A stretch of 64,000 nt of DNA, taken from NCBI GenBank assembly GCA_032718475.1, contig JAUCBJ010006988.1:62001-126000 (forward strand), written 5' to 3'. This DNA comes from Nemertoderma westbladi. Lineage: Eukaryota; Animalia; Xenacoelomorpha. Below, piece by piece: positions 27,173 through 64,000 of this stretch. Made by a program: the position numbers and the translations under genes. The notes under the pieces are model-generated. The model had not been told where the DNA came from. It saw only the letters and a program-made list of their open reading frames with translations, and made no database searches. Each line of letters starts with the position of its first letter. The first letter of the stretch is position 1.

Positions 27173-27180
27173 TATCGTGA

Positions 27181-29859: not shown

Positions 29860-30963
29860 AAACTGTTTTCATTCTAAACCTGAATCAATAACTGAACAAT
29901 ACACCGATTCAGGCTGGGGGAGGTGTAGGATAGTGATCACTATCAGTATCAACTGTATGTACATATAAATGTAAACCTATAAGTAACAAGGGAGATTATT
30001 ATTCTAGAACTGAGATGAAAGAACATAGCTACAGTATACGAATATCTTGTATTCTAATATTTACATAATTAAAGTAATACATTAAAATATACTCAATGTC
30101 ACTTCTTTCATTATCATACAGGCCGGAATCAAATTATCGATTCCGGGACATCCCTAATTATAATTAATTATATTTAGGCTAGCGGTCGTCGCTGCCTCCC
30201 CCTCAATGCCCCCGGACAGCGCAAGATCCTCAGCGCTGATGTACTGTCGTCGCTGTGCCTCTCGCCAATGTAGTAGCTACACAACGACAACAATATCCAG
30301 CGAGAGTCACTCCACTGTCCGTCCCAAGTGCTTAGAATTACTTCAGGCAGGTTCTTGCTACAGAGGTAGGGCAACTTTCACAACTGCGACTCGCTACTGT
30401 AAACATACTTTAGTAGTAACATTCACCTATAAATGCACAAATTCCACACAACTGTCACAAATTGTACACATTCGGGCCATTTGTCCGTTAGTCAAGTGCC
30501 TTCCAGAATGCCACGTTATTATTATGTATCCCTGGATACTAGCAGTGTGCTATTTATTCCGTATGTTATTCAATGGTGCAAGCTTTCTATTGTTCTTTTA
30601 ACTCGCTTCTAATTCTAGCGTGGTTGTTGCTATGGTGACATTATGGAAAGCTAGCAGTAGAATTAGGGTAATTCTCATGCATACAGATCTGGGATGCTAT
30701 TTAATAGTAATTCTTTAATTGTCAATATTCCCTTTTATACATGATTTTATTAATTTTATCGGCTATTGACTATATATTGAAGATTCTCGCACACTAATAT
30801 ACTTAATAGGGTGAATCTCTGCTCCCATGATCTATTAATTAATGGAATTTTGGGAATGTTATAAATTGTATAAAATAACAATTTATCAAATTCATCAAAG
30901 GATATGAATTTAAATTTATTCCCGTAAATTTTATTATTTAATATTAAAATAGACACAATTTTC

Positions 30964-31344
30964 TTCCAGAACATGTCTGGGGACTAGGATCCTTAATTCT
31001 AGGAAATTGGTCTTTTTAAGAGTATCGGTAAGTACTACGATATCTTAATCGACTAGAATTTTAAAGGATCTGAATTTTAACAGATTTTGGATTTCTAGAT
31101 TTTCTTGGTTTACAAACTCCTTAGAGTTTATTTGTCTGCCTTTTACTCTATTATAACATTTGTCTTAATAGATTTTATAAATATTTTTTAAATATTTAAT
31201 ATTTAAGATGGGCACCGATTTATTCCAGAACATGTCTGGGGACGTTAACCACTGATTCTAGAATTTTGTCTTTCAAGAATATCGGTGGGTGCCGCGATAT
31301 CTTAATCGACTAGAATTGCAGATGGTCAAAGGGTTTAACAGATT
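30964..31344. ncRNA. Two diverged copies (30964-31088, 31223-31344) of a putative structured cis-RNA element between pol and ORF3
   Basis: Shared CCAGAACATGTCTGG hairpin and nested stems ATTCTAG/CTAGAAT and AAGA.TATCG/CGATATCTT; the outer stem differs in sequence but pairs in both copies. Confidence 0.5.
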
Positions 31345-31875
31345 TATTTTGCGTTTTACGCTACTGTTAAATGGACATAATTCTACTATATGTATTATTT
31401 AATATACGGTATGAGAGCAATATTGCAAGAAGCAATGTCAGTGAGAAGAGGCAAGTCGTTTCCAAGGTCTACCCAGAGCTTGGTTTAGCCGAGACACGAG
31501 GATCTGAACTTTGCATTCCTAATACTCTACTTACCAATAATACTTGAGTATAGTAGGGGCGTTATTTTGTACTTTAATAAGTATGGACATTTCATCTTAC
31601 TGTAGTCACGTATTTATAATATGATACGGACAGTAAGGAAAGAGAAAAAGAATTATTTCTCGCCGTTAAACTTAAAGATATATTGCTAAGTAATTAAGTA
31701 ATAAACACGAATATATATATTGTACTAATCTACTAAATAATCGCTAAAATAATATTCTACTAAATAAAATTAAAGAAAACGATTATAATAATAAAATTAC
31801 GTAATAATACATACATAAATATAAAAATAATAAAAAATATAAAATAATGTAGTCACACACCCACTCCAGACGCTG

Positions 31876-34800: not shown

Positions 34801-37800
34801 GAACAAGCGTTCGAGGGGCTCGAGATAATCCCGAAAGCCTAGATGGTCATCCAGTACTCCACCGGTTTTAGGTTGAGATCTCCTTCAGGCCACCATAGAA
34901 ATCGTAGGCTGTCTCGATCCCTATCCAGCGCCTTGACTTGTAAGAACATGCCTTCTATATCTGAAGCGAAAGCGATAGAATATTGCCGTAATCTTAATAG
35001 TATTCCCAACAGTGATTGAAGTAAGTTGGGTCCCGGCAACAATTCGGAGTTCAGGGATTGACCCATGTAAAGGGCGGAGCCGTCGAACACTACCCGGACT
35101 TCGTTGGGTTTACCTGGTTTGGGAATGTAATGATGTGTTAGATAATACGTTCTCTCTGTTATGGGTGTTTCTTCCGGTACTCGCTCCGTGTATCCCTTAT
35201 CGATAAATTTCTTCAGCTAGGTTTTATACATTTCCCTGGCTGAAACATTGGCCGTAAGACGCCGATGTAGTTGCGCGATTCTCTTTTCCACTAAAGGTCG
35301 GTTATTTATAAAGTTGGGTTCTCGCCGTCGGAACGGAAGACCAATCTCATAGCAACCTTAATCTTTTAGAAAACGGGTAGTCGTTTCCTGAATCTGCTTG
35401 GCTCTCTCTTCCTCGATGGACAAGGCCTTGTCGTAGGAATTAGGCTCTACGGCTTCTTGAGTAAAGAATCATATAGCGTGTTCATCGCGAATTTTGTTAT
35501 TGTATCGATCTATCACTTCATTTAATTCGTCGTTGTATGCGAATTGTCCGCCATGATTGATGAGATGGCACAGATTTACTTGGTTTACCCAAGTTTGATT
35601 TTTGGTGAGGAGGTCGATTGTATTTTCCTCTTCATATAATTGGGTGATATCGTCATTGTCTGAGGAGTATGGTGTTCCCTCAGTTGTGGTTTCTCCATCT
35701 CTGATTTCTTCTTCCCATTCACTCACCTGATGTATCCTGTCATTAGGGAGTCTTTCCATTAGGGTTCTATGGGAAGGTCCAGTGAAGTACCAACCTACTC
35801 TCGTTCTTCCCGCGTACGTTTGTAATGGTTGCGGTCGAGCAGGCCATTTTTCTAAGGTCTCAAGCGCTTCGTGCGCATTTTGGCCGATTAATATCTGAAC
35901 TCCTGGGTAATCGGTGTTGAATCTAGGGATATCATGTTGCTGGGTAAAATGGTCTTCATCCCAGTTGTAAGGCTCCACTTGGCTAGTAGCAAAGTTATTT
36001 ATCACCACCATTTTTACCGACCTTACGCTATAATCTCCTAGTTCATCCTGGGGAGTGGGTAGCGCACCCACATAGTAATCTGTAGCTACTGTGGATTTCC
36101 AAACCTGCATAATTCCTGAAAGGTTCAACTTAGTTCGGAACTTGGGTTGTCCAGCAAAGATGTCTTCGGCTAGTTCTTTGTCAATAAATGTACCAGTGCT
36201 GCCGGAGTCAAGGAGGGCGTTTACTATGAGACTCTTCCCTAGCCCATGGACTCTCAACTGCACAACAGGAAATTCCCGGATTCCGAAGGAGGAAGTTGGC
36301 GCCTTCCAAGATGATTGTCAGTCCGGAATAGTCAGTCGAGGCTCTTCATTGTCCGTTTCATACGTAAGTGCTCGATACACCGCGATGTTTATCATATAAC
36401 AGAATTCGTTTTCGTCGGAGAATTCGTCCGTGTAGAATCCTTCCATCTCAGAGCTGTGGTCAGTGTCGTTCACATCACTGAATTGGACATGTAGTTCGGG
36501 CTCACTTACCTGACTTTTGCAGGTTCTGTCAAATTCTGTGTGCAGCAAGATATGATGTTTCGCGCCGCACTTAGCACACCTAGCATCTGAGTAACAGGTC
36601 CACCGTTGGTGTCCTCGTCTGAGGCAATTATAACACAACTGCTTATCCCACATGACATCACGTCTATCCTTAAGGGATTTCTTCAAGAATTCATCACACC
36701 CACTTAATCGATGGGGCCCGTCGCACAATGCACATTTGGGTTTGATATTGCTTTCTTCCATGAATTCTCTTAGGAGACATAGGAGGAGTTGTTACCTGTT
36801 CTCTCCTGTCACTGGTTCGAGACTTAAATTTACTTACGTCTTTTCTTGGTTTGTTGACATAATAAGATCTTACGGTGTCTTTCCCGCTGTTCTCCTCGTA
36901 TGAGGTTTGGCTTTCGCGTTGTCTGTATAACACACTGGTGTTACTTTTCTCCTAGAAATGGGTTTTTCACTCACCTTATTTTCAGGTGTCTTCTCTCGGG
37001 ACTGCTTTAGGAGCTGTAATCTTACCTCTCCATTTAAGAATGACATGAGATCAACCATGGTAGGGTCCCTTTGTTGCTGGTCCATCATATAGAGAACTCT
37101 TTTGTCCCAACGCGTACCTACTCCACCTTTTGGCAAAGTAGATGCTACAGCTCCAACAACCATAGAACTCTGATATTCCTGAGACTTACCTAGCCAATCT
37201 AACTGTCTACAGATCTCCTGGATCTCATCGGAAAATTCTATAATCCCGCTGCTAAGAAACTTTCGGGGCGCTCCTAATTTCGCATACAAATACCTAGCTA
37301 TGTTAGTCCTATTACCATACCTGATGTTTAGTGTATCCCAAACTTGTCTTAATCCATCTGGATGTCCAATAAACTTTAACGCCATTAACTTGGGAGGTCC
37401 TTCCAGGCACTCGATGAGGAATCTAAGTTTCTCTCCGTTGGATAGTACAGAGTTCTGTATGTTATCTTTATAATATTCATTAAAAGGTAACCATTTTACC
37501 GCTTGGCGAGTTTCGGTTCTAGCCATTTGACGTGTAAAACTTTCTTAAGCCATCGTATTATTTAATATCGAGTTATCAGTATATAAATTTCTCGGATTAT
37601 GGTCAGATCTATATGGGATATCATTGTCAACAGGTTTATAATTACCCTTAATAGGGTTTAATATAGGAGTTTCTACTTCACTAGCAGTATAGATGTGTGT
37701 AGGCTCCACTCCTTGCGCATGAAATACTTCAGACCTAACAGGTTGACACATTGTTACAGGGGATGGTGGTATACCCATTTGTATATTTACTAATTTATCG

Positions 37801-39900
37801 CTCTCTAAAGCGATACTCTGCTGCACTTCTTGCAACTCTAACCTACTCTCTCTTACTGTTCCCTTTAACTGCTGAACAGTCCCTTCCAACTCTCGGACCT
37901 GCTGGGAAGAATGTAATTTATGTTCTTCCAGCTGCCCGAGCAGGCGATCCATCCCCCGCCGTCCCTCGTCTACCCACTCAACCGCCGAAGCGGGAGCCGC
38001 CAACATAGTAGTGGGGTGACGCGTAGGGACGACGGGCGACAAATCATTTATGTCTTGCTCGGCGTCCAGGACCGGGAGTGATTCAGGGGCTGGTCTACTG
38101 GGCACAGGTAGTTTAGTACTGTGCAAAGGGAATTTAGAGTTAGGTTCTGTAAGTATAGGGGTCTGTATCACTGGAGTGACTTCAATGACAGGCCTAATTA
38201 TTTCGGGCTCATCTACTATAGTAGGGAGTCTGTCTACTCTAATAATTTGGTCTGTGGGTTCAGAATTACCTAAGTCTACACTAGCCAGTTGCCTTCTCAC
38301 CGCAGGAGGTAAATTAGGTAACTTCTGACGGTGTGGCGTTCTTCTACGTCCACTTGAACGAGCTTTATTACCTCTACCTTCGGGATCTGTTGTATCGCCC
38401 TCATCGGAGGAGGTAAATCCCTGTCTTCTGGGAGTAGATCGACTCAGTAACTGCATCTGAGTAGCTGTCCTTTGTTTCTTCAAGTAATCTTGTTTCGCCT
38501 GAAGGTTCTCCAGCTCTAGTTGGGTAGTCGCTTCAGACGCTTTCAGTTCTGCTTCTGCCACTGCCGCCTTTCTTTCAGCCTCTGCAGCTAACACCTTTCT
38601 CTCAGATTCTGCCGCTGCTGCTGACCTTCGGTCTTCTATTTGCCGTTTCTTTAATTGTTCTTCTTGATCCATTGTCATGAGGATGCTTTCATCAAATTTA
38701 GCCTGCTCCGCGGCTAATATTTCCGCATCTAACGAGTCCAACACAAATTTGGCTCCCTCACTATTAGGATGAAGTCCAGCTAGCCGTCTCCTTAGCTCTT
38801 TGTCACCTATAAATCGTTGATAGTCCGACAGATAGATGTCAATAGCATCCTTCTTCTGAGGTTTTTCGGATGTAGCTTCGCCTTCCACTTGAGAAAAGGT
38901 AGCGTCTGTTGATTCTCCGTGGGTTGCGCGCTCAGTTAGCTGAACTTTCCATTGTGTCGTTCCCTGGACTTTAAGACTCACCCGTTGGAACCAGGTCTTT
39001 ACGGCAACTTGCAACGACGTGTCTTGGCTTCTCTTCGAGGCTTCCTCAAAGGCTGAAAGGATTAGTCTGATCCGTAAGATTCGTTCTCGAACTTGATAAA
39101 GCAGCTCTCCCTGCTCTTGAGGTCCTTGACGTTGTTGAAACAGGTGTTCCTCTAATCGCTCCAAAGAGCTGAAGAATCCCTGGACATATCCTGCTGCCGA
39201 CCTCTTCCACACAGCTGGATCTCGAGTGTCCCTTACTACTCCCATCCTGTATAAGTCTTCCCAGGCAGCTTCTGATAAGTTGAAAGGGAGTCCGGGTCCA
39301 GGGAAGTTCCATTGCGTCTCGACAATAGACCTCAGTTCCTCCATCGTGTATCCCGCATAACTGTCCCTGGTCGATCGCTTACTTCTCGCCCAATCGATTT
39401 GATGTTCTTCCACAGCGATCAATACTCTAGTGAGTACGGCCCCAGGAAGAATTAGAAGTGGATCCGGATAAACCACTTCTGTCATCCTTGCTCCGATTTT
39501 GGGTGTCAACTCTACAGTGTCTGAACTACTGGAGTTATCGGGCTGTTGAGAAATAAGTTCTCGGTTAGGGTGCTGCTGCAGTTTAACAGCTGCCTCTTGG
39601 TCCCGCTTGACTTGAGCCCTAGTGCCTATAATAGACCTATGGTGCTTTACTAGCCTAGGGTCTGACACTACTACTGTAGGGATGACCTTTCTTACAGTAG
39701 GAGGGGACTTGGACTTTGGTCTCAGATGTTCTATACTCTTATCTGAGTCGCAGACTGTTCTTTCTAGGAGACTATCTGACAGTGTTTGCTTTGTGTTCGC
39801 GGTATTTCAACTTTTCTTAACGCGAGTTGAATATTTTTTGGATTTATTTAAAATGAATATTCCGATATCACTACTGGGTGCGGGAACATGGGATTTGGGC
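31876..39900 (-). pseudogene. Bel/Pao gag-pol polyprotein with many stops and frameshifts
   Basis: Gag core (EKLRFLIECLEG), triple knuckle CALCDGPH / CYNCLRRGH / CAKCGAKHHILLH, protease LLDSGS, RT GPNLL and YMDD (34713-34724), RNase H FGDAS and PRAEL, integrase DLFGP, SDKGTNF, GGSWERL. The start codon is uncertain. Confidence 0.93.
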
Positions 39901-40104
39901 ACATTCAATGGACTGGGGGCGATTTATGGGCGAATATTGGGGCGACTTATGGGGTACGGGACTCATTTTATGTATTTAAGGGCCAGGGGTGGGAGGCAAA
40001 GTTAAGCAGTATTCAGGTTTCTCTGATTACTATTAGGCCTAGCCAACTTCCTGCTGCCTGTAGAGGTGGATTTGGTAACTCGCTAGGTCTAAAGGACAAG
40101 GACT

Positions 40105-40930
40105 GCCCTTAGCGGTCCCTGGCTAACAGCAGTTATTACGAGCCTGAATAAGGACTCGGAAAGTCTGCGGCTTGTGTCAGGGATTTGCGACGGGAACCGA
40201 CAGACAGATCCTTAGCGGTCCCTGGTCGCCGGCAGTTAGTACGAGCCTGAATAAGCACTCAGAAAGCCTGCCGACATACGCCAGGGACTTGCGACGGGTC
40301 GACCGACTAACGGAGGAAGGGTTCGACGAGGACTGCCTTCCTGGAGTGGGTTCCACAACTGGCGTTAGTACGAGCCTGAATAAGGACTCGGAAAACTACC
40401 AACCGTTGGGGCTCACGACGGGCTGACAGACCCCTTGCCAAGCCGTACCGCTTTCCTGATGACCGATCCCCTTGGGGTTCGGGAAGGGTGGGACGGACAC
40501 GCAACGGGGTCGAAAGACAAAGGACCGGACTCTACTGGCCTACCGACTGTTCGGAGCAGCTTCTCGGCTGCCGAAGCGATTACGAGCCTGAATAAGGAGT
40601 CGGAAAGCCTAGGTGGTTGGGTCCCTGCGATGAACCGACGGACCCCTAGCCAAGCCGTACCGCTTTCCTGATGACCGATCCCTTCGGGGTTCGGGAAGGG
40701 TGGGACGGACACACAAATGGGTCCACCGACACGACAGACCCCTAGCCAAGCCGTACCGCTTTCCTGATGACCGATCCCTTCGGGGTTCGGGAAGGGTGGG
40801 ATGGACACGCAACAGGGTCTACCGACTGGACCGACCCTTAGCCAAGCCGTACCGCTTTCCTGATGACCGATCCCTTCGGGGTTCGGGAAGGGTGGGACGG
40901 ACACGCAACAGGGTCGACCGACACCGACAC
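40105..40930 (+). repeat. GC-rich array of two hairpin unit types (4 + 4 copies) in the Bel/Pao leader
   Basis: Type A core TACGAGCCTGAATAAGGACTCGGAAA near 40137, 40240, 40370, 40581; type B core CCGTACCGCTTTCCTGATGACCGATCCCTTCGGGGTTCGGGAAGGGTGGGACGG near 40443, 40655, 40751, 40847. Confidence 0.9.
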
Positions 40931-41503
40931 TACGGTACCGAGACTAGGACCGAGGGAAAATTGGGGAACATTAGTTAGGTTAAAATCTGAGCGAACAGTG
41001 AGTAATTAAATAATGTACTGTAGGGATTTATATTGTCGTGTTATATTATTGTGAATATTTGGTGTATTATATTGGTTTGTGGAAGCCCAACTTATTCTCA
41101 ATCAGGATTCAACTACAGTAAAGGTTTCATTGTTTGGTGTTCAAGATTCAGTGAGATTAGATTCAACCGTAGGGAAGTTATATTAAAGATTATATCCAAC
41201 CAATGAAACTTTTCTCAACTGCAATCTTGCATTCAAGAAAGTATTTCTTCTCCACTACCAATATCCGGTGACTGGCCGGGATTCCGTGGTCTGAAAAGTT
41301 CCACCTCAAGCATCGGCGTTTTCCCCCATGGTGTCAGGAATAACGGCAACACTTTGTGTCAGCCATGATTTATTTTACAGTTGAATGCCTACTACTATAA
41401 CAACAGTTAAAGCAAGTCTAGTAATTCAGTATCAACTGTAAGCCTAGTGATTAATTACCGATACTGTTACTCAGTGTAACGTGATATATATTAATATATT
41501 AAA

Positions 41504-41750
41504 ATACCAGTATACTTATAGTATATATATAAGTATTATTACAGACTAGGATTAGTCACAGAATACCAGTATATAATTTCAGACTAAATTTATATAAATA
41601 AATATAATAAGCCTACCGTAAATACAGGTATACACCTATAGTATATATAAGTACTATTATAGACTAGGATTAGTCTCAGAATACCGGTATATAATTTCAG
41701 CCTAAATTTATATAAATATATAAAATAAGCTTACTGTAAATACTGGTAAT
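41504..41750. repeat. Tandem duplication of about 120 bp in the Bel/Pao leader
   Basis: Two copies containing GACTAGGATTAGTC and AATACC(A/G)GTATATAATTTCAG. Confidence 0.8.
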
Positions 41751-43201
41751 GTCAATTATTTGATAATAACTGAATTTCTTGATTTTAGGGTTCCTTCCCT
41801 TTACTTTATTACTGTTATTAAGCAGTAGTCCAACTGATATTAAGACCTAATTGATGTATAACAGGCCTACTATTTTATAAATCTGTTTGAGTTGATTTAT
41901 AATATATATATATACCCGTACAATGGGTTTTGACAATGTTTGAAATAAATGTTATTATTTCTGGGTAAGGAGTCACTACACAGATAATTCTACTTTACTA
42001 AGTTACTTATCACTACAAATTACTTTACAATTACAGTTTGAGATTACAATCTCTAAATAAACACTAAAAAGTTACACATACAATTTTTAGGGTAATTTTA
42101 TAAGAAATCTACAAACCAGTCTAAAAAGGAGTTAGAATTTCTGGTTCTTACAAACTGACAGGAACTATGGTATTTGAAAACAATAAAGCAGTAGTAAGTA
42201 AGTTGCGTTGTCCAGATAAGGAAATACCACCGTCTGACGACTTATAGTCTTAGCTCTATAAGTACTACGTTATGTACCCGGAGTGTCCTTACCTAGAAGT
42301 TAATTACCGAAGCCAACCAGAGCCAACGTGCCTATTAACCACGTTACAACACAAATATACTGCCTACACACCAAATTACTTTCGGAAAGCACTGTACGCT
42401 AAACCCTAAATTGGGTACAAGTACTTATACAACAAATAATCAGCAGTTAAATATACTTAAACAGCCAAAAGAAGCACGGTAACTGCTGGAGTGACCGGAG
42501 CACAAAATCACCAGTCTTTACCTACACCAAGCAGCCCTGATGTAGTACCGGGGTTAATTTAACTATAACGGTATGTATAACAAGCACAATTACTGTAGGA
42601 ATAAACTTGGGGAGTTGTAGGTTGCGAATACTCGCATAGACTCTGAATAATAAATATTACGCTACCCGTGCAGACTATTTAAATAAAATACAGACCAAAT
42701 GCTGGCAGACTACCGTCAAGCCTAAATAAACTACAGTATATGCAGACTCCGAAATGGTTAGTTAGTAGGCGTTCTAACCGAGTAGTACGACTTATTCTTT
42801 CGGGGGGGATTTACCTTACAACAGTGGATGCCCCCACCTTCCTAACTAGCACTTTATCGGACAGACACTCTACACACACTGTAATCGCTTCAGACCTAAC
42901 AACAGTTAGACAACAATTCGGCCTACAAATTATTTATACAATCTGAGCAGGCTTACACGCCTTCTGCTCAATATTACACTTACAGATAAATAAAACTGAC
43001 AGAAATAAGTAAAATCCCAATAAAAAACCAGGGCTGCAGTCCCTGATTAAATATCAAGACCTACTGGTATATAATTATCACAATCGAATAATACTGCTGT
43101 ACCTGTAAGTACCAGTTCGGGTAGTTGGGCAGTTAGGCCTACAGCTTACCGTCCGACCGGTACATTCGACTTTATTGCCTACTGTGCAATAAAGAATTTA
43201 A

Positions 43202-43213
43202 TAAATCTATTAT
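43202..43213 (-). promoter_or_regulatory. Putative self-priming primer-binding site
   Basis: Minus-strand ATAATAGATTTA directly abuts the LTR end and is the exact complement of LTR-internal 43979-43990; no TGG-type tRNA PBS nearby. Confidence 0.65.
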
Positions 43214-44349
43214 TGTTCGCGCTTTTAGACCTTTAGCAGTTTAACCTGCCAATTTTAGTTGTCCTCTTGTTTATAAATCGACTTTAGCCTATATCAATTA
43301 TTTAATGTACTGAAGTTACATCAGCCAAAGCCAGTCTGTGCGCGATCATTCACCCACAGTTAAGGGAGACTGGATTCGGGTGCTTTGAAAGTTATTGCAA
43401 TGTAGACCTACTGTATTATTCGATTGATCGTTACTATATAATCTCTGACAATATATTTACTTTCGGGGAAATATTAACAGTTCCTTTAGGACGTGGCGCT
43501 TTAAGTATAAAAAGAGAGTTATGACTTATACTAATCACAACGAGATGGCCACAGAGTTTCGTAAATAGAGCATTCTTTAGGAGATGCTTTATTATCTTTC
43601 ACACTACCTCACACGACTTCACACTACTGCGCACTAATCTGCCGACCGTCACTGAATTTGATCATATATAAGGAGGATTGCAACTGACACATGTAGGGAT
43701 TATGAAATAGCATTTAATTCACACAAAAACCACTATAATGTAAGTCGCAATTGCTACCGGTAACCTGTTCCTCTTACCTTCAGTAATCAAGAAGATTGGG
43801 GGTTTTATGATTATTTATCGGTATTCTCCAAATATATCAGCAATATACATCAATATAACAACAATTAATAACAGGCCGTAAACAGAAGTAAAATAATGCG
43901 GTGAACAGTCAGCATGTCGATGATCCAGGTGGTTGAGTTAATGTTTCAGGCAGTTGGTGGCAAGATTGTAGGTGTCGGATAATAGATTTACATTCTTATA
44001 ATCAAAGCCATCAGATGTTTAGGCCAAAGTCTGAAACTTCCAAAAAAGAAGTACAGAAGATTCCAAGCCGGTTTTGAGGCTCAGAAAGGTAAACAAAGAC
44101 CGTAATGCATTGTGCGGGTTTCCATAGGCCCCTGTCTAACATAAAGTGAAAATCGCTCTGATTGGCTGAATAGGCAGAACAAAGAGGTTCCACGTCTACA
44201 GGAAATCAGTTGACAGATTTCGTCATCTGAGCTCCAATCTTTTAGAGTATTATGCGCATTGCGGCAAAAATGACTTGTTATGTCCGCAAAAGCACCTACA
44301 CTGCGCATTGCGGGAAAAATGACTTGTTATGTCCGCAAAAGCTTTTACA
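43214..44349 (-). repeat. 5' LTR of Bel/Pao copy 1 (1136 bp)
   Basis: Boundary confirmed by three different flanks; minus-strand CCAAT near 44161-44165 and AATAAA at 43588-43593 are present in all three LTRs; about 49-bp tandem duplication at the U3 end. Confidence 0.95.
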
Positions 44350-46565: not shown

Positions 46566-46908
46566 GCTGTTCTCTCAGGCTATCAGTACCGGTATTGGTA
46601 TATATAGCACTATTTTGCTGTCAGGCTGTATTGTATGTACAGATGTAGGTATAAAGCAGGTATTTCTGTATTTTAGTACCGGTACCGGCACCGGTACTGC
46701 TATAGGCCTGTGTAGCCTACCATTTAAATACGGTAATGGTAGGCCTACCGGTTGTGTTAATAAATTTTAAATAATTGATAGGCCAAACTGGATTGCAGGA
46801 TTGTGGAAAATGTGGATATACCTTTCACATAATTTAGGCCTATTACCTGATTACTGTATTAGTTTTATAATCAATAATGGATCATGACTACTGTCTGAGT
46901 GTTGTCTT

Positions 46909-47525
46909 AACCTGCTCCTTTCCCTCAATTAGTTAAGTGATCGTTTATTGTTTTGGTTAGAAAATCCCGCCTCTGTAACCTGCTCCTTTCCCTCAATTGG
47001 TAATGTTATCGTTTATTGTTTTGGTTAGAAAATCCCGCCTCTGTAACCTGCTCCTTTCTCTCAATTGGTAATGTTATCGTTTATTGTTTTGGTTAGAAAA
47101 TCCCGTCTCTGTAACCTGCTCCTTTCCCTCAATTAGTTAAATGATCGTTTATTGTTTTGGTTAGAAATTCCCGCCTCTGTAACCTGCCCCTTTCCCTCAA
47201 TTAGTTAAATGATCGTTTATTGTTTTGGTTAGAAAATTCCGCCTCTGTAACCTGTCCCTTCCCCTCAATTAGTTAAATGATCGTTTATTGTTTTGGTTAG
47301 AAAATCCCGCCTCTGTAACCTGCTCCTTTCCCTCAATAAGTTAAGTGATCGTTTATTGTTTTGGTTAGAAAATCCCGCCTCTGTAACCTGCTCCTTTCCC
47401 TCAATTTGTTAAGTGATCGTTTATTGTTTTGGTTAGAAAATCCCGTCTCTGTAACCTGCTCCTTTCCCTGATTTGGTAAAGTGACTGTTTATTGTTTATT
47501 GTCGGCCTTAACCTGCTCCTTTCCA
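46909..47525. repeat. Tandem repeat, 68-bp unit, about 9 copies
   Basis: AACCTGCTCCTTTCCCTCAATTAGTTAAGTGATCGTTTATTGTTTTGGTTAGAAAATCCCGCCTCTGT recurs every 68 bp. Confidence 0.95.
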
Positions 47526-48006
47526 TCAATTGGTAATTGTTTTTGGCTATAAAATGAGTGTTTTGCTACGTCATGTGGTAATCGATTATCGACAACAACC
47601 ACAAACTATTAAATATAGAGTCTTTTTACCACAGGCGCATATGGAAATCTATCTCATAGTCTATAAATCATGGAATCATGGAATGTTTTGGCACAGGCAT
47701 AGTGAAATCAACTATCTGACAGTCCAGAAATCAGCCATCTGACAGTTTGAAGAAATACATACATAAAAAGTCATTAAAAGGACAACAAAAGTCATTATGC
47801 ATAATTCGTAAAAAAAAAGGACAAAAAAAGTCAAATAAAAGGACATAAAAAATCACTGCCATTGTAAATAGTTACAGTTCAGCTGTTCAGTGGTTAACAC
47901 TGACAGACTGATAACTTAACCAACTGACCAATACAGGTAATAAATACTACACTGCTAGGTACACCCTCAGACTCTTACTCTTCGACTCTCAACTATCAGT
48001 ACCGGT

Positions 48007-51000: not shown

Positions 51001-53340
51001 ACCACCCCCCTAACAATGTCAATTCGCTAAGGCTCCGCCAACTTCGTGGCTCGCCCCACTAATATTTTATATATTTAATGTTGTGTAAATTCTTTATTAA
51101 ATTCGCTATGTAATATTTATTTTTACGCTCGATTCTGTAAATTTATTTTTTCTTCCTCTTATACTTTAGAAGACCCAAGGAATGCATTTACAAGATTGAC
51201 TTGACAGGCTCTAGTGCGTTGTCCACCGTTTCTTGTAGCTCTTAGATATTTTCTCACCCGTTCGATAAAGTTATTCATAACATTCATCATCATCCTTCTA
51301 CCTATGACGTTGCGTGAACATTAAGTGAACCTTTTAGGGTCACGCGAAGTGCTTCTTTACTCACACACAAGATTTAAATAGTTTATTACGATAAAAAATC
51401 CACAATTATTTTATGTTTTAGGTTTCACCAACATCGTGTGTCGGAGTGCCAACGAGTTCCCAAACGATATTCAGTATGAGTTGTCCAACTGCGTCTCCGG
51501 ACTGCTGGCCCGGGTACTACAGGAGCCGCAGTGTCCCTCTAGCGTCCTCGGTAGGAACTGCAACGTCAGCCGCATCCCTCTATCGGCGACTCTCAAACCG
51601 CTGCTGAAGTGCCTCATACGTATCAGCGAGAGATTCCCGGGACCTGGCCCGGTCCTACTGGAAACCTTAACTAGTAGGTTAATGCTGCTCACTAGTTCGC
51701 AGCAATCCGACCAGCGCGATTTGCCGCAATCTGACGCCCCGCAGCAAAACTTGCAGCAATCCGCCCAACTCTTAATTTTACAATCACTAACTATTCTCGC
51801 CTCCAACAACCCCCTTCTTGTGCGCACCCAGACCGACCGCTTGGTGGCGCTATTCCAGCAGTTGTTAGCGGCTCATTGCCCTCCCGATGTGGACGGGTTC
51901 AACGACCTCCAGGTCACTGACCCCCGAGCAGAGGCCGTTGTACGACTCGCCTCGATTCTACTCCGGATCGGTTCCGCCGAGGCGGTCAGCCGGGGGGTCG
52001 GGTTGCCCGGCAACGGGTGGGTCGTCTACCGGGTGGCGCGCGCCGCCTCCCAGACGGGGCACCACGCCGCCGCGGCCGCGCTCTACGTCGCCATTGAGAC
52101 CGCGGTGCAGTCCGAGACGACCCACTATTGGTTGAACTCGCTACGTCGGTTGAGCGAAGCGGAATCGCGTTGCTTAGCGACTGATGACGCTGTGACTGCG
52201 TTGGGGGCGGCGGTTGACGGTTACCGCGGGTGTCTCTCCGCGTTGGCTGCGTCAGCCACGACCGCGGCTCCTTGTCGCTTCCAACGCGATTACGCGGCGC
52301 TGCGGTGCCGCTATCTGTCCGCGTTACGCCAACTAGCGGTGACAGTGGGCGCCGCGCGGCTGTGCCCCCCGCCGGCGCTCGCGGACGCCATGTCGGCGAC
52401 TACGGGGGACCCCTGGTTGCGTTGCGCGCGGGTGGCTTCCGCTGCGGCCCCGCTAGTTATCGAGTTGGCGGCGCTCGGGGCCGACTACCTCGCGTTGTAC
52501 CGCCGCTCGTTCGACGGGGACCCCGACTCGCTGCGCCACCTCGAGCTGCTCCGCTCGCAGTGCGCCGCGCTGGGGGCCGCGGTGGACGCCCTCCTGGTGG
52601 GGACCGGAAGGCCGTCCGCATCCGGAACCGGAACTGATACCGACTCCTCGCCGGAACTCTCGGAACTAACCGATTGGATCGCTCGTCTCGTTGCCACCGC
52701 TTTGAGCCGCGTGAAAGTCCCCGCTGTAACTCGGCTACAACTCGACTGCTTGGATTCCCTCCTCGCCGGCATCGTGCGCTGCCGTTTGCCGCTTCCCAGA
52801 CTCTACTTCCAGACACTGCAGACGACCCACATTAAACTCGCTCTCACAGCGGCCCATAAAAGCGCCGGTGAAACCGTGCTGATTAACAACGACACTGAGT
52901 TAGTCGTTAAGGTGGAGGGCGTTATCCAACAGAGCGCCCTTGGGCGCGCTCCCTTCCGTAGGGTACACCGGGTGAACCTCAGACTGGTCTCACAGTGTCT
53001 CAGCGCTCCCCAAGGTTCCGCGGGTAAGCCCCCATGTTTAGAGGAACTCTCCTCTCGGTTGGAACGCTCCGTGCAACCTCGGAACGATTACTTCTCCGTG
53101 GATTTCCTTCTCGCCTTCCCCCAGCCCGGGGTCTATCATCTCAAGTTGGTTGCTACGGTAACGGATGGCGACGGGGTGGGTTGGGACTCTGGGCCGACTA
53201 GCGAACTCACCGTTAAATCGTCCGCCCTCGATACTCTGTACAGCAGACAGACACAACAGAAAGCCATGTCTACGTCTGGCACTCCTACGAGAAGTAATGT
53301 CTTCCAATCTGGACAGACATCACTACAAACTAAAACTTAA
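48007..53340 (+). CDS. INTS7: Integrator complex subunit 7; exons 48007-48471, 49439-50057, 51422-53340 (about 1000 aa)
   Basis: EQDANTALLELDKGLRS...EQCEAIVRFPKLFEKFPFPIVINSAFLKLA, HSNDPIARSLTLR, and C-terminal YFQTLQTTHIKLAL and PRNDYFS; GT-AG junctions with matching phases (0 and 1). Confidence 0.95.
50144..50298. repeat. 55-bp tandem repeat, about 2.8 copies, in INTS7 intron 2
   Basis: ACCACCTAGAGGCAGACTGGGTAACTGCAATCGATTTAAGCCCTCGGAATGCAGC; diverged CTAGCGGCAGACT echoes occur further along the intron. Confidence 0.9.
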
Positions 53341-55610: not shown

Positions 55611-56153
55611 CTATATTAGTGTGTCCTCTCCCCGTACGTAGAGTCCAACATCAGCTTGATTAAACGCGACAGTAGACATCGGGTCAGTTCGTCTGCATTC
55701 CTGGGTGGACTTCGCTGAAACTCCGAACCCAACTGGGGTATCGTTCATCGAATAAACCACGACTCCCTGGTACTGCGGCGTGTTCTCGGAGACCCTACCC
55801 AGTCCCGACTTGAGCACGTGATTCCCGTAGAGAAAACTCTGCTCCGCTCCGGGTTTCAGCCAAATCTTATGCTTAGCTAGCGGGGCCACAACGTCCAACG
55901 CCGTGACGTGAAGTCGGAATCGTTTTGTTTTAGTGAACTTTCCGAGACAAGTACCGAAGCTAGCGAGATGATCGTGGTCTATTGTCGCTGCTTGTTTCAT
56001 TACGTTGTGTGACGCGTAGAAAACACGATCGTTGTGGAGTCGGAAGCAATAATCACCGTCCTCCCGATTAATTAATGCGCTGACTTTATCTCCGATGTAC
56101 TTGGAGAGTTTCTCAAACACCGATTTGGTTTCTTCATCGGTTAGAGGTCGCAT
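55611..56153 (-). CDS. NIP7: 60S ribosome subunit biogenesis protein NIP7, intronless, 180 aa
   Basis: [43 protein letters not shown] domain [31 protein letters not shown]. Confidence 0.97.
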
Positions 56154-58511
56154 AATCAAGTGGCTAGCGGTAAAGCGTAACCAACACTAAGTCCAAATGT
56201 GCAGAAGTGTGTTGGTAGAGCGATAGAGTGACTCAAGGCTGCAAGGATAAAAGGCGTGAACAGGTGAAGGGAGACCGGTAGGCCTACTCAGTACCGGTAC
56301 CGCTGTCAGCGGACATGCAATTCAAATCCGGGAGGGCCTACTAAAACGGTTTAGAGGAAATGAAGAAAAAAATTAAAAGGATTATTATTATTATTTATTG
56401 CCATACTTAAATACAATAATGTATATAAGGCAGTTTAGAGGCAAGCCTGTTTAACTGATAATAACTGACCTCTTAAGGAGGTGAGCTGGCACTCTATCCT
56501 AATAAGTAAGTACTAAATATAAATATAAAATGCATGCAGTAAATAATAAACCTATGAACGAAATGGTTACACAATATTTCCATGCAGAAGAGCAATATAT
56601 TTATCTAGTTAAATAATTGTATGGTACGGTACTGTACTTATATTACAAGAAACTATTACATAATACATACAAGTATCTATTATTGTTGAAGTGGTAACAT
56701 TAAAATTATTAAAGTGGTAACTCGTGGTCCTTGCAATCTGAAACTTTTATCAAAACTTTTTTTATACCACCTCCAATAAGTTAGCATCTTACAACTTTTA
56801 CAGTCCAGTGTATGTGTATGAAAAACGTGTGTGAAAAGTGTCCCCCCCCCCCCCCCCCCCCCCTTAGCGACATTAAGGGAATTGGTTCTTTTCAAACACA
56901 CTTAAACTCAAGAGTATCGAATGGCCATAATGCTAACATACAAACACACTTACACCTATATAATATTCTATTTGTAATAAGTGCTAAACTAACTAACGCT
57001 AACTCACTGAATGTTGATTGCGAATACCCCTCCTTTTCGCGAATTACCAATTTCACACTGATCACTTAACAACTAAAAGTGTTTGCATTAACTCCGGGAG
57101 CGCTCAAGTCCTAACTAATTACTTTCCTTTTAGATAGCCGTTGAAATTAGTACTCTATACAAAGTCCTAACCCGATAACGATGTATTGTCACGGAAACGT
57201 AAATGTTTTCTTACCTGGACATCATCCACTACTACGTATTTCAATTTATTGCACCGGCGACATGTTGTGAGTGATTGCCGTGAAATGGATAACTTTTACT
57301 AGACAAGTTTCAAATATATTATTTCAAATTTCTAATGTAACAAAATTACGTACACCATTGTGTGAAAAGGACACTAATCAGCGTTTATTTATGTAAACCT
57401 CCCTCACCGACGACCTCGCGCGGTACTTCTTTTGGGCAACTTTTCACACAATGATGTAAAATAGTTATTGTTTCAGATTTATCCATATAAATCCTCAGTA
57501 TTGTCAGTAAAAAGAGTTCAATCCAATAATTATTCGTGTAACAAAAAAGACAAACTACTCCTAACGTTTTAAGTAATTCACTTTGAAAAAATATTAAATT
57601 GGGCACACGCTTGTGTACATTAAACAATAAATTAATGAATAAGGCATGGCCATGGGGGTAGCATGGTGGCATAGTAGCATGGCCATGGGGGTAGCAAATC
57701 GCCAGAATAACTACACGACCGTACTACAACACTACAAGTACCGGACACCGGTATACCACAAAAAAGTTTACAGAAAATACGAATACGAATTTAAATTATG
57801 TTGCTCACAGAGTTAACATTTTTCACCCACACCATGTAGGAGAAATAAATAAAACCGTAACCTATGCACACCAGTAAAGGGTGCAGGTTACTTATGTCAT
57901 ATTCTCTACGACGGTAATAGGTAATTAGCGGTTCTGCAACTGTATGTGTGGGTTATATATATACTCCCTCATAGTTCAGTAATGTGAGAAGTTGACAATA
58001 AGATTGTATGTTTTGACTCATCGCCAACAAATAATTACAAATTATAACTATTGCTTTACATTACAGAAATCTTTAGAGAATTCATAATCAATTAAATCAA
58101 AATATAGCATTGATTCAGTCAAGATTGCACGATTTATCTAATATTTAAATTGTATCATAGCTATCAACATCCAAACAACCATAACTAGTGGGTACTAGTA
58201 TTGGGTAATTGGGTGTACTTGGAATTGGTCTACGTATTATGATCACTGCGTACATTTTTATTTTCCAAATTAAGAATAAACATAAATTTAACCATGACAT
58301 TAAAAAAAAAACAAATAAACAAAGTGACTACAAAGTATAAAAAGATAATCAGGTAACAAGACCTGCCCCAACCCAACAGCCGTCTCGATAATCACTGTCT
58401 CCGCCAGAGACTGCCGCTGTCGCCCCCTTGTAGTTGCATAAGTTTATAAGCCTTTTAGAGTATTTAGCGCATTGCTCAAAATGACTTATTTTGTCCGCAA
58501 AAGCTTTTACA

Positions 58512-58955
58512 ACAGACGCAATTAATTGGATAATATTGGTTGGGACAGACGCAATTAATTGGATAATATTGGTTGGGATCGACGCAATTAATTGGATAAT
58601 ATTGGTTGGGACAGACGCAATTAATTGGATAATATTGGTTGGGACAGACGCAATTAATTGGATAATATTGGTTGGGACAGACGCAATTAATTGGATAATA
58701 TTGGTTGGGACAGACGCAATTAATTGGATAATATTGGTTGGGACAGACGCAATTAATTTGATAATATTGGTTGGGACAGACGCAATTAATTGGATAATAT
58801 TGGTTGGGACAGACGCAATTAATTGGATAATATTGGTTGAGAGAGACGCAATTAATTGGATAATATTGGTTGGGACAGACGCAATTAATTGGATAATATT
58901 GGTTGGGACAGACGCAATTAATTGGATAATGTTGGTTGGGACAGACGCAATTAAT
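58512..58955. repeat. Minisatellite, 33-bp unit ACAGACGCAATTAATTGGATAATATTGGTTGGG, about 13.4 copies
   Basis: Directly visible, with few variant units. Confidence 0.97.
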
Positions 58956-59595
58956 CGGGTATTTGATTGCATTGGAAGCATGTTGTCTTCAGTCAGCCTT
59001 ATGGCCATAAATCCTTTATAGTGTTTTCCCAAACATTATCTTGTTTAAAATCGAATAACGAGACCACAGTGTCGATGACTTCAAGTCTTTTGTCTCTAGT
59101 AGGAAATTAAAATACATGACGAAATATCGTTATCCTGCGGATTGTAATGTTAGTAATATTAATTAAACATTTTAAGCAGTCCCACATAAATGTAGGTCAA
59201 ACACACGGTAACATTATGCACACCTGCGAATAAGGGTGCAAGTCACTTCACTATTCGAACTGCTACAACAATTTAGACATTTAGTAATACAACAATGCGT
59301 ATTCATTATATATTCTCTAAGACACAAGGAATATGATGAGCTCATGTAAGACAGCGGAATTTGAATAATTACTAATAAGTAATTACGATTGTTTACAGTT
59401 AATTTAAATTCAAATTATCTTTAGGGATTTCATATTCTATTCTATCTAAATAATATCCCCTACTCAGTCAAAACAAGCATACTTTACAGATATATATTTA
59501 AATTCAATTTGAGATAACAACATCTGGACAACCAGTTGTAATACCCAATAAGGTGTAGGGCGGAGATGGGGGGGGGGGGGGGACTGAAGCAAATC

Positions 59596-62500
59596 TGTTC
59601 GCGCTTTTAGACCTTTAGCAGTTTAACCTGCCAATTTTAGTTGTCCTCTTATTTATAAATCGACTTTAGCCTATATCAATTATTTAATGTACTGAAGTTA
59701 CATCAGCCGAAGCCAGTCTGTGCGCGATCATTCACCCACAGTTAAGGGAGACTGGATTCGGGTGCCTTGAAAGTTATTGCGGTGTAGACCTACTGTATTA
59801 TTCCATTGATCGTTACTATATAATCTCTGACAAATATATTTACTTTCGGGGAAATATTAACAGTTCCTTTAGGACGTGTCGTTTAAAGTATAAAAACAGA
59901 GTTATGACTTATACTAATCACAACTAGATGGCCATAGAGTTTCGTAAATAGCGCATTCTTTAGGAGATGCTTTATTATCTTTCACACTACTTCACACGAC
60001 TCCACACTAATTCACACTACTGCACACTAATCTGTCGACCGTCACTGAATTTGATCATATATAAGGAAGATCGCAACTGACACTTGTAGGGATTATGAAA
60101 TAGCATTTAATTCACACAAAACCACTATAATTTAAGTCGCAGTTGCTACCGGTAACCTGTTCCTCTCACCTTCAGTAATCAAGAAGATTGGGGGTTTTAT
60201 GATTATTCATCGGTATTCTCCAAATATGTCAGCGATATACATCAATATAACAACAATTAATAACAGACTTCCAAAATAGAAGTAAAATAATGCGGTGAAC
60301 AGTCAGTATGTGTTACAATAGTAATTAAGCAATGTTACGAGTAATGGGCCAAGATAATAGATTTACGTTGTTGTAATCAAAGCCATCAGATGTTTAGGCC
60401 AAAGTCTGAAACTTCCAAAACAGAAGTACAGAAGAATTCCAAGCCGGTTCTGAGGCTCAGAAATGTATACAAAGACCGTAATGCATTGCGCGGTTTTCCA
60501 TAGGCCTCTGTCCAACATAAAGTGAAAATCGCTCTGATTTGGCTGAATAGGCAGAACAAAGAAGTTCCACGTCTACAGGAAATCAGCTGACAGATTTCGT
60601 CATCTGAGCTCCAATCTTTTAGAGTATTATGCGCATTGCGGCAAAAATGATTTGTTATGTCCGCAAAAGCACCTACACCGTGCATTGCGGGAAAAATGAC
60701 TTGTTATGTCCGCAAAAGCTTTTACACTGCTCCCAGAAAATGGGATTTAAGTCTATAAAATATAAAAAATCACAGTTTCTAAAATATAAAAATACTCTAA
60801 ACGATTAGTCCTTCTTACATGAACGGCGTTTACGAAGTTTTTTGATGCTAGCAAGAGTCTTTTTCTCTTTGGGGCGAGCCACTTTACTAGGAGGGCTATA
60901 ACTCCTGGGTGAGGGGTGCAATACAATTGCATCAGAAGGTTTAGGGTTACGGTCGGTGTATCTGCCGGTCGAGGTACCCGGTTGATCGATATCAACCTCA
61001 GTGGAACGAGGTCGAACAACCTTTAGAGCGCGTTTCAAGACAGCAGCTCTTACTGGTCCCTGACGAGTCGTTTGCACGAGAGCGGTAGGTGGACCGTGAG
61101 TAGTGAGAAATTTCCTCGGTTTGATGGTTCTTTCTAACTCGCGTTCACGGGCTCTATATTCATACGGTCGTCTATGAACTTCCTGTAGTTCTGGATGCGA
61201 GTTGATGAACAAGTCACCATATTCCGGATCTTGACGGATGAAGTTGATCAAGTTATAGGAATTAGGTCATTAGGATTAATGTTCCTGAGGTACTTGCGAA
61301 TAAATTTGGTCGAAATATTCTCGCCAACACGCTTCATTAGCTTGTAGCTAGGTGTGCGAGATTTTTGCTCAACGGAAGCAAAGAGATACGGGTGAAATGC
61401 ATAAACTCCTTCGTAGGCACGTCCAGGGTAGTATCGATGACGTGACTCGCAATGGAGATCCACGTTATCTTCCCAGGCTTGAATGTAGCGCAGTGCAACC
61501 ATTTCATCTACGCTTTCCAGATCTCGGTTGAAAGGGCAATCAAAACTTGCGTGTCCTTTAAACTGGCAATGATGACATTGAGTCATAAATTGAGGGCAGA
61601 CTGCGAAGATGTATAAGTTATTGAGTCTACAATACACACAATAGATTTCCATTGTGGGTTGATCTTGAAAGTAGGAGCAGGGTACGCTTGAGTCCACCGG
61701 GGTGAAATGGTCTCGTGATGCGCATAATCGGCAACGTTTCCTAGAAACATAATTGGCATGCCGATAATCGTATGCGGTGAGACATTGTGGACCTTGATAT
61801 CATTCCAGGACGTAGTCATTGTCACTGCTCCTGGGCGCTGTGGGTTGAATCTCCTCGGACTCTAAGCAAATTGGTTCGTCTTCCAATTGCATAGCTGAGG
61901 TATGTGTAGCTGTCTCCTCAAGCGAACCCACTGTTTGAACTTCCACGATAAAATAACCTGTGGGGATTCGGGGTCTTTGTATGACAGAGGAATGTAAGTT
62001 CTGTATACAAATGTCCTTGAAAATGGCGAATCCAGCGCTGTCTAACTTCTCAGCAGCTGAGTTTCTTAGGCTGAGCTTAGTCAAAGCGCGGTCCTTGAAC
62101 TGACTATCAACGTTACGGAACAGAGTCAGAAAGCGCCTAAAACATTCAAATCGGATGAATTTATTGTGTTCATCTAGCTTGGCGAGTTTGGTTCCAAGTA
62201 ACAAGGGATGAGCGCGTATGGTGCGACTGCACACATCGGCTAGCCAACCGGCAAGTGCGGCGTTCTCGAAGATAGTGTATATAGCTAATGAGGAACGAAG
62301 TGGAACACTCATGAAGCTATAAACGACGCCAGGTGCAGTTAATGGTCCGTCGAAGTATAATCGAGAATAATGATCTCCATATACTTGTTGATAGTTGATA
62401 GGGTTTCCGACTTTGAAATTCCATCCATATTCTTGAAAGGCAAGATGTCCGATGGAGGTTCGTTGGACTTTATTGATGCCGCTGGATGTATTGGCATACA

Positions 62501-64000
62501 TAGTTCGGAAGAAACCTCGGCCTTCTGCCCAGGGAGCAATCAGCTGGGTGTCTACGAAAGGATATGGGATATTCTCCATGTTCCTAAAGTCATTCTGGAG
62601 ATCTCCATAAACAGCTGAGCCGATTTTAAGGATTCTTTCGTTGAACAACATCTCGAGCACTGGCTGGGGTAACATCGATCCATCCATACCCATGGCCAGT
62701 TTGCGCTCGGTATCGGTGACGTAACGCTATGCGAGTTCGAATTGTCCATGTCGGAGTTTCTTTTGGATCTCGGTGAGAGTCTCAAAAGAATAATCGATCA
62801 CGTCGGAACACGCTCGGGTAAACACATGGGTAGAACCAGCTAGTCCACGTATGTGTATCATCCGCGTAGTTCCCAGCTCTCCAACCGGAACGCCGGTTTC
62901 ACCATATAATATTGAGTTAGATTGACGTAATAAGGATGGTCTTTGATCCCATAAAATGAGTTCGGTAAAGGTGTAGCGCGTAGGTTGACCTCGTGTACCA
63001 TACGACGGACAAGATCCGCTCGATTGTCCGGAGGTTCAACGAGTATACCGTCGACACGAGCGGCCTCAATTGGCGGACGTTGTAACATAGGAGCGTCAGT
63101 GATAAGATCTCGAGATCTTAGGTTGATATCAACCAGTTGGGGTTGTACCGTGGCGAAGAGTTTGTCTCCGAAATGGGGAACTATCGAGGGATGAATGATG
63201 GTTTTGGAATAGAGATCAGTCATAAGGATTTGAGCTTCTGGTTGGGCTAAAGCTGCTTCTTCTCTCTCGTCCATTTCGATGTGCTTCTCCTCGAGCTGAT
63301 TTTCCTCCGCTTTTCGTTGGAAGCGTTCATCTAAAAACTCTTGTAGAGAGTTTTGCCGAATAGCATCTAACGCGTTTCGTACAACGCTCTCCTCCACCTC
63401 GGTGACGGGTTGTATCGGGGTTAAACCGGGACGATTATACGGGTTGAACGGCGATATTAAATGTCAGCGTCCCAATCCGGCTAGATTGGATGGGCGAATA
63501 TCTAGAGAGCCCACTACCGGAGTGCCACCGATTAATTGTTCGGGTAACACTAGATCTTTGAACAGTGAGTACAGTTCAGGGGGATCCGTTATACTATTAG
63601 GATCAAGAGTCTGAGGTCTCACTAGGGAATGAGGAGGTCTGAGCGAGTATTCCGGAACTCTGATCATCGGTTTATTTAAGGATCGTTTGAGTCGAGCGAG
63701 CGTAGGTGACACGTCGAACAAGTTTTGCTCCAAACTCCCGTAAGTATAGCGAGTAAAGCTGTGTTTAGCGCAACGTCTCCGCGGATGTTTATGTCTTTCC
63801 GTTTGTTGGTTGGGTCTAGGGCATTCATCGCAATAATACCAAAGACGGACGTCTTGTAGGGGAAACGATGGTGATCTTTCTCCAGTTTCACAATATTCCT
63901 CCATCTGTTCGAAGCTATCTGGTACAACAGGTAGCGGTCGATCGGCGGTAAGATACATCATAGTGAAATAGAGTCATTTGAGTTCTATCATAGGGTCATG
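59596..64000 (-). mobile_element. Bel/Pao copy 2: 3' LTR (59596-60726), purine tract and ORF3; continues beyond the window
   Basis: Colinear with 20561-23030; tract GGGAGCAG at 60727-60734 on the minus strand. Confidence 0.93.
60805..64000 (-). pseudogene. Accessory ORF3 of copy 2: Cys/His motif, DEDDy-like 3'-5' exonuclease domain, three zinc-knuckle-like motifs, basic tail
   Basis: LPQPVLEMLFNERILKIGSAVYGD, FVDTQLIA, SIGHLAFQEYG, PLRSSLAIYTIFE; CRLCASRDH...C, CVYC...C, CHHCQFKGHASFDC. Lesions: stops at 63464, 62727, 61800; frameshifts near 62915 and 61262. Confidence 0.75.

Follow-up and report, generated by a model that had tools for sequence, protein, structure and literature searches.

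The window examined here is a stretch of 64,000 nucleotides from Nemertoderma westbladi (assembly GCA_032718475.1, contig JAUCBJ010006988.1, positions 62,001 to 126,000 of the forward strand). It carries two copies of a long terminal repeat (LTR) retrotransposon, assigned to BEL/Pao, wherein a third open reading frame (ORF3) lies between pol and the 3′ LTR and appears to encode an RNase D-type (DEDDy) exonuclease domain followed by zinc knuckles. The principal parts of the two copies are as follows.

20561–44349, minus strand: copy 1, a complete, decayed BEL/Pao element with LTRs and a 5-bp target duplication (GGGCG)
43214–44349 and 20561–21349, minus strand: 5′ and 3′ LTRs of copy 1, 2.2% diverged
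43202–43213, minus strand: primer-binding position of copy 1, with no tRNA-type TGG; 12 of 12 bases are complementary to LTR positions 360–371 (window 43979–43990)
31876–39806, minus strand: decayed gag-pol of copy 1, with DUF1759, aspartyl protease, Peptidase_A17, integrase zinc domain and DUF5641
21446–23526, minus strand: ORF3 of copy 1, whose N- and C-terminal parts share one frame
60805–64000, minus strand: ORF3 region of copy 2, between pol and the 3′ LTR, continuing past the window end
59596–60726, minus strand: 3′ LTR of copy 2, a copy whose 3′ part alone lies within the window

A third gene in a BEL/Pao retrotransposon

Because its gag-pol region includes the Pao families DUF1759 (Pfam E 5.7e-11), Peptidase_A17 (E 2e-37) and DUF5641 (E 4.5e-18), in a protease, reverse transcriptase, RNase H, integrase order and between LTRs with a target duplication, the retrotransposon is best assigned to BEL/Pao (Belpaoviridae). 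The gag-pol order, the Pao-specific Pfam families and LTRs within 0.2 to 1.2 kb agree with the profile of the Belpaoviridae (Semotivirus) given by the International Committee on Taxonomy of Viruses (ICTV; PMC8742986). Unlike the elements of that profile, which are described as 4.2 to 10 kb long with a third gene that is at most env-like, copy 1 measures ~17 kb once nested inserts are subtracted, its third gene does not look env-like, and the sequence after its 5′ LTR, read by eye, lacks the 18-nt tRNA-Arg or tRNA-Gly primer site.

A sequence-only reading of this stretch had proposed that coding pieces lying between pol and the 3′ LTR, on the strand of the element, form an ORF of about 1200 amino acids when the two copies are merged. 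Both points were borne out. The pieces lie at 60805–64000 next to the LTR at 59596–60726, with a second copy at 21446 to ~23526, and the merged ORF comprises ~1,223 codons, 159 of them found only in copy 1 and 1,064 in copy 2. Merging does not extend to the exonuclease domain, however, which is present in copy 2 alone and has no second reading. ORF3 of copy 2 is interrupted by four in-frame stops (63974–76, 63464–66, 62727–29 and 61800–02), a frame change within 62858–63035 and a one-base loss near 61260. The frame bearing the exonuclease domain has 2 stops in 555 codons, compared with 21 to 39 in each of the other five frames. As had been predicted, no transmembrane segment is evident (maximum 19-residue hydropathy of 1.22) and the N-terminus is not hydrophobic, so that by hydropathy the product would have neither the anchor nor the signal peptide of an env-like protein.

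In copy 1, the stretch matching 61606–63351, which holds the exonuclease domain and the first two knuckles, is missing. Its place, ~1,745 bases of ORF3, is taken by 128 unrelated bases (22249–22376) that are in frame and free of stops and that have no other copy within the window. The two copies can be compared over 475 codons of the ORF3 flanks, the exonuclease domain being present in copy 2 alone, and they differ there at 30 synonymous and 38 nonsynonymous positions. A dN/dS near 1 across family branches was one of the results that the sequence-only reading had named as counting against its proposal; for these flanks the ratio is 0.36–0.49, depending on transition weighting (p 0.0001–0.004). 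In the same comparison, four of the five other frames give 0.96–1.28, and a value of 0.51 is obtained for the reverse frame, whose third positions are shared. Thus, the ORF3 flanks evolved under purifying selection after the split of the two copy lineages. ORF3 is a genuine, selected, now decayed accessory gene of the BEL/Pao element.

The putative RNase D-type domain and its active site

For the searches, the exonuclease frame of copy 2 was read from position 62915 with X at the stop, giving protein P0001. Among 1.84 billion proteins, HMMER returned a single match to P0001, an intact protein of 648 residues called P0002 (E 1.7e-5, 30% identity). In P0002, an N-terminal exonuclease-like domain leads through a low-complexity linker to three CCHC knuckles and then to a basic end. 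The window protein shares this layout of exonuclease domain and three knuckles, and the knuckle regions match each other independently (1 of 3,000 shuffles scores as well). A word-indexed protein search found no relatives of the element proteins besides P0002 itself, and none were found in viral contigs, JGI metagenomes, phages or plasmids; a sequence search of the PDB returned knuckle matches only (HIV NC, E 1e-4 for P0002). The features of ORF3 in copy 2 are listed below.

63770–63841, minus strand: Cys/His cluster WYYCDEC..HKH..C, a possible zinc site
62858–62861, minus strand: ATGA stop-start, in which the first ATG of the exonuclease frame shares bases with the stop codon that closes the frame upstream; a possible ORF3a/ORF3b boundary
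62226–62861, minus strand: RNase D/WRN-type DEDDy-like domain, indicated by several weak, concordant tests and one homolog
62781–62801, minus strand: candidate ExoI strand VIDYSFE, in which P0001 residue Asp41 aligns with the first ExoI acid and Ser with the second (low confidence)
62601–62603, minus strand: ExoII Asp (D105 of P0001, D130 of P0002), invariant in the aligned element proteins and bacterial DEDDy domains
62265–62279, minus strand: ExoIII Tyr-x3-Glu, reading YTIFE (Y213-x3-E217 of P0001; YIYCE in P0002)
61536–61733, minus strand: three CCHC-type knuckles, degenerate at 61677–61733 and 61596–61640 and canonical at 61536–61577
60808–60897, minus strand: Lys/Arg-rich tail

The motifs quoted in the sequence-only reading occur in the translation in the order given there (WYYCDEC..HKH..C, LP..K97..D105, DTQ, SIGHLA and PL..YTIFE), and the basic tail is likewise present, with 13 of the last 30 residues being Lys or Arg. 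Its claim of three CCHC-like knuckles holds in part: the third is a canonical CX2CX4HX4C motif (Pfam zf-CCHC_3, E 0.00066), whereas the first has a long His-Cys spacer and the second lacks the His. Family searches gave no match for the N-terminal part of ORF3, including the Cys/His cluster.

Several lines of evidence point to the RNase D family. P0001 matches the NCBIfam RNase D model (rnd; E 0.0053 and 0.034). The top ESM Atlas clusters for both proteins carry PF01612, at scores of 0.88 for P0001 and 0.86 for P0002 that fall below the 0.9 lead threshold and serve as leads only; that of P0002 is a cluster of Euglenozoa combining PF01612 with zf-CCHC. A two-row profile of P0001 and P0002 produced 46 matches in 301 bacterial genomes at E up to 0.05, where ~15 are expected by chance. 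Forty-one of these begin at profile positions 83–86, and 26 of the 30 loci that were fetched are RNase D. Against nine WRN-like bacterial domains, chosen by Pfam and not by the query, the scores of just 1.7 and 5.0 bits are equaled in 2 of 500 and in none of 500 shuffles. HHalign against RNase D gave probabilities of 88–94%, a partly circular result because the element profile had served to select those RNase D sequences, and controls gave 0.1–0.3%. A set of seven putatively NrnC-like rows gave no match. The alignment of P0002 with bacterial DEDDy domains runs from ExoI, at a confidence of 6–7 of 9, to ExoIII. Similarity to the DEDDy family (PF01612, RNase D/WRN) is therefore present at the level of sequence and profile, and the window domain very probably has an RNase D-type DEDDy fold.

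For structure prediction, the alignment used for folding was picked because alternative alignments misplaced ExoIII, and 40 tries yielded no deeper alignment that kept all anchors. With the model built on the DEDDy alignment, the top 30 VIA rows of a fold search are all DEDD-fold (best Z 5.6, rmsd 4.3 over 136 aligned residues), a circular agreement, and Foldseek with the predicted model gave no match at E < 0.1. No HRDC domain was detected after the exonuclease domain of P0001 or P0002 at E up to 10, a search that remote forms would escape.

P0002 residues D62, E64, D130 and Y229 occupy columns that do not vary among 37 bacterial DEDDy domains. At the ExoIII column where those domains carry Asp, P0002 has Glu233. 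The window copy has the ExoII Asp and reads YTIFE at ExoIII, as had been noted from the sequence. Because Tyr-x3-Glu is common to P0001 and P0002, the ExoIII Glu is, as far as these two sequences tell, a family trait and not decay. Compared with an active DEDDy nuclease, then, both proteins have the ExoII Asp and neither has Tyr-x3-Asp at ExoIII, and the Asp-x-Glu of ExoI is found in P0002, whereas the best register in the window reads Asp-x-Ser with low posterior. Two tandem PL-x6-Y motifs precede ExoIII (62280–62345), and the acid follows the second one only.

The sequence-only reading had placed ExoI at the frame break. This placement was not upheld: the sequence that precedes the break does not resemble the ExoI region of P0002 significantly (its score is equaled in 116 to 1,263 of 3,000 shuffles), and the site favored by alignments is VIDYS, ~40 codons downstream of the break. 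Among 60 alignment subsets, the first ExoI acid falls on D41 in 54, on E45 in three, on E49 in two and on a DTE at 68–70 in one; these subsets are not independent of one another, and they were aligned with a query that starts past the break. The posterior for the placement at D41 is 0–2 of 9. Because loss of either ExoI acid abolishes cleavage by the Trypanosoma brucei enzyme TbRND (D80A and E82A, with D230A nearly abolishing it; PMC7797062), catalysis appears plausible for P0002 and, given the state of ExoI here, doubtful in the window lineage.

The frame break also bears on how many ORFs were present, as it coincides with the ATGA at 62858–62861. Among comparable stops in the coding frames of the element, 19 of 201 are made by an ATG in this way, which puts the chance of such an overlap at ~10%. 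From this ATG to the ORF end there are ~686 codons, not far from the 648 residues of intact P0002, and RNase D proteins likewise begin at the ExoI strand, as would an ORF that starts at the ATGA. Overlaps of the AUGA and UAAUG types are reported to bring about reinitiation, both in viruses and in the SART1 retrotransposon (PMC10275272). Against two ORFs counts the fact that copy 1 keeps both flanks in one frame; codon usage was uninformative on where the frame change lies. The single ORF assumed in the sequence-only reading is favored by the shared frame of copy 1 but is called into question by the stop-start, and we regard two natural ORFs as a tentative proposal that falls somewhat short of even odds.

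Possible roles of the ORF3 protein

We assign a probability of roughly 0.5 to a model in which the ORF3 module bound RNA 3′ ends and was a weak or inactive nuclease, with the RNA of the element itself as its likeliest client. TbRND from which the CCHC domain has been deleted no longer binds RNA and loses most of its cleavage activity (PMC7797062). By analogy, the knuckles and basic tail of ORF3 would bind single-stranded RNA, and the knuckles would supply the RNA affinity and present the RNA 3′ end to the RNase D domain, which would hold it in a modified nuclease site of probably little or no activity. Because the ExoIII Asp is replaced by Glu in both proteins and the window copy has no clear ExoI Glu, the window lineage may have bound more than it cut, like EXD1, Exuperantia (Exu) and, functionally, Egalitarian. 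The bound RNA would most likely be that of the element in its ribonucleoprotein, shielded in this manner from host 3′–5′ decay and silencing. The parts of this model with direct support are the position of ORF3, selection on its flanks, homology to P0002, the ExoII Asp and the ExoIII Tyr-x3-Glu.

A number of observations weigh against this model. The D62, E64, D130 and Y229 of P0002, together with an acid at 233, fit an active enzyme, and with the ExoI register uncertain, catalytic loss in the window copy can only be presumed. Every test of DEDDy similarity is individually weak, and the profile and cluster scores all lie below curated cut-offs. Pfam and PDB sequence searches gave no match for the exonuclease domain of the window, and Pfam reaches only E 0.2 for that of P0002. 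Single-sequence AlphaFold prediction of the window domain gave a pLDDT of 31, and a 10-row DEDDy alignment raised this to 45, with the first 61 residues unresolved and the ExoII core at ~70. P0002 itself is known from a single 9,449-base ENA contig. Finally, the selection measured is that on the flanks of ORF3, the exonuclease domain being absent from copy 1.

The acids of P0002 lead directly to the alternative of an active 3′–5′ exoribonuclease, a D-E-D-E variant that would trim or destroy host small silencing RNAs or tailed RNAs and so act as a counter-silencing factor. P0002 has acids at all four positions as well as the ExoIII Tyr, and the Asp-to-Glu change is common to two proteins of 30% identity, so that an acid is kept; the ORF3s of bdelloid rotifer elements also have a changed but acidic motif, DEED (PMC5408684), and small guide RNAs are a class depleted by TbRND, which shares this layout. 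However, the window copy offers no clean D-x-E in any register, and the rotifer study reports no clear link between DEDDy ORF3s and copy number (PMC5408684). We consider this role unlikely but not remote. On another reading, the resemblance to DEDDy nucleases is limited to 46 residues, by chance or as a fragment, and the protein has another fold altogether. Most profile matches do cover residues 84–130 alone, and the fold-search Z of at most 5.6 was obtained with a model that itself used a DEDDy alignment. Yet P0002 aligns from ExoI to ExoIII with bacterial DEDDy domains, and the same family is reached by two different methods and from two proteins, which leaves very little room for a different fold. 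It is also improbable that the exonuclease domain was captured and carried as dispensable cargo, with the flanking parts alone being of importance. Copy 1 joins its flanks in frame through 128 open bases and could represent a lineage that transposed without the domain, and two of the three knuckles are degenerate; the domain nevertheless retains its ExoII and ExoIII residues in a nearly open frame of 555 codons, and the same layout is kept by the 30%-identical P0002.

Three roles had been proposed in the sequence-only reading, and making the primer for reverse transcription appears to be the weakest. The nuclease would trim element RNA to a 12-base duplex between the LTR and the primer position and halt where the helix begins, in the way that RNase D halts on tRNA. 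Indeed, there is no tRNA-type site after the 5′ LTR, unlike in the ICTV family description (PMC8742986) and in a gypsy element nested in copy 1. The sequence there starts ATAATAG and, read by eye, pairs with the LTR; the 12 of 12 complement begins at the first base after the LTR, a length reached in 4 of 2,000 shuffles, and the duplex has a pairing probability of ~0.57 in one fold. The 12-mer is retained in the LTR of copy 2, the two LTRs diverging immediately past it, and a 350-base deletion has removed it from the 3′ LTR of copy 1. On the other side, 10 of its 12 bases are A or T, and the pairing was tested after a hint from the sequence-only reading. Because a TATA lies at LTR position 680 and an AATAAA at 757, the complement is probably in U3, ~400 bases from the RNA 3′ end. 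Furthermore, Tf1-type priming relies on RNase H. Primer trimming is accordingly an improbable role. Even less probable is its fullest version, an oversized, tRNA-independent BEL/Pao lineage with an AUGA-coupled bicistronic unit, the second protein of which would be a D-E-D-E exoribonuclease with knuckles that trims element RNA to the LTR/primer-site duplex and thereby makes the primer for reverse transcriptase.

Known relatives and other features of the window

DEDDy ORF3s with the motif DEED have been reported in the gypsy-like LTR retrotransposons Juno1/2 and Vesta2/5 of bdelloid rotifers and in Athena/Terminon elements (Rodriguez et al. 2017, PMC5408684), an account that two reviews repeat (PMC6338049, PMC6431247). 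The sequence-only reading had named this precedent, which holds, as do the DEDDy fold and the non-env nature that it had proposed, in view of the RNase D profile matches, P0002 and the hydropathy. Like the rotifer genes, ORF3 is a non-env ORF of putative function after pol, with an RNase D-like domain, an altered acidic motif and no transmembrane or coiled-coil segment. It differs in its BEL/Pao host element, in the D-E-D-E motif of its homolog, in its three C-terminal CCHC knuckles and in ~550 extra N-terminal codons. Protein searches with the element proteins returned no Juno, Vesta or Athena sequence, and the likeness is one of description.

TbRND likewise combines an RNase D domain with tandem CCHC fingers downstream of it. 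It is a cellular, mitochondrial protein, however, with a canonical DEDD motif and four fingers after a 28-residue linker, whereas the window protein and P0002 have linkers of ~165–270 residues, three knuckles and the ExoIII Glu; the likeness is probably convergent. In EXD1, Exuperantia and Egalitarian, the DEDD fold serves RNA binding and catalysis is lost or dispensable, Egalitarian being reported to work without its catalytic residues (10.1101/2025.08.03.668247). These are host proteins with other partner domains. None of the three is known to carry knuckles.

The word "exonuclease" is absent from the main text of a BEL/Pao survey of 62 genomes (PMC3118150), and we found no published DEDDy gene in BEL/Pao in the literature covered, which excludes most subscription papers, Repbase notes and supplements. 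What is new here is the BEL/Pao host superfamily, the TbRND-like layout and the ExoIII variant, the accessory gene kind itself having been published from rotifers. With this finding, accessory genes of the exonuclease type, reported from gypsy-like and Penelope-like elements of rotifers, would extend to a third group of retroelements. Repeated capture of an enzyme of RNA 3′ ends suggests a common pressure, whether RNA decay, small-RNA silencing or priming. The intact, natural P0002, which shares the Asp-to-Glu change at ExoIII, makes testable the putative role of such ORFs, which were reported in 2017.

Copy 1 has further features of its own. A non-coding element with terminal inverted repeats (23558–30156, 8-base duplication), presumably hAT-like, is inserted ~30 bases before the first ATG of its ORF3. 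Nested within it, on the plus strand, is a young and nearly intact gypsy element (25264–30120) with 198-base LTRs that are 99.5% identical and an ordinary TGG primer site. The 5′ leader (39807–43213) is unusually long at ~3.4 kb and contains tandem repeats of ~96, 103 and 118 bases; Rfam gave no match in the leader and 5′ LTR. An N-terminal extension of gag (37545–39806), ~650 codons from the first Met, has no Pfam match. The same is true of a 145-codon plus-strand open frame (30164–30601) in the A+T-rich interval of ~1.7 kb between pol and ORF3 (30165–31875).

Elsewhere in the window lie two host genes, INTS7 (51382–53340), a long single open frame with G+C of up to 66%, and NIP7 (55611–56186), also a single open frame; both are in keeping with an animal host. 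A 33-base tandem array (58479–58961) is preceded by a short copy of the LTR end (58497), and further tandem arrays have units of 16 bases (6100–7700) and 68 bases (46840–47590).

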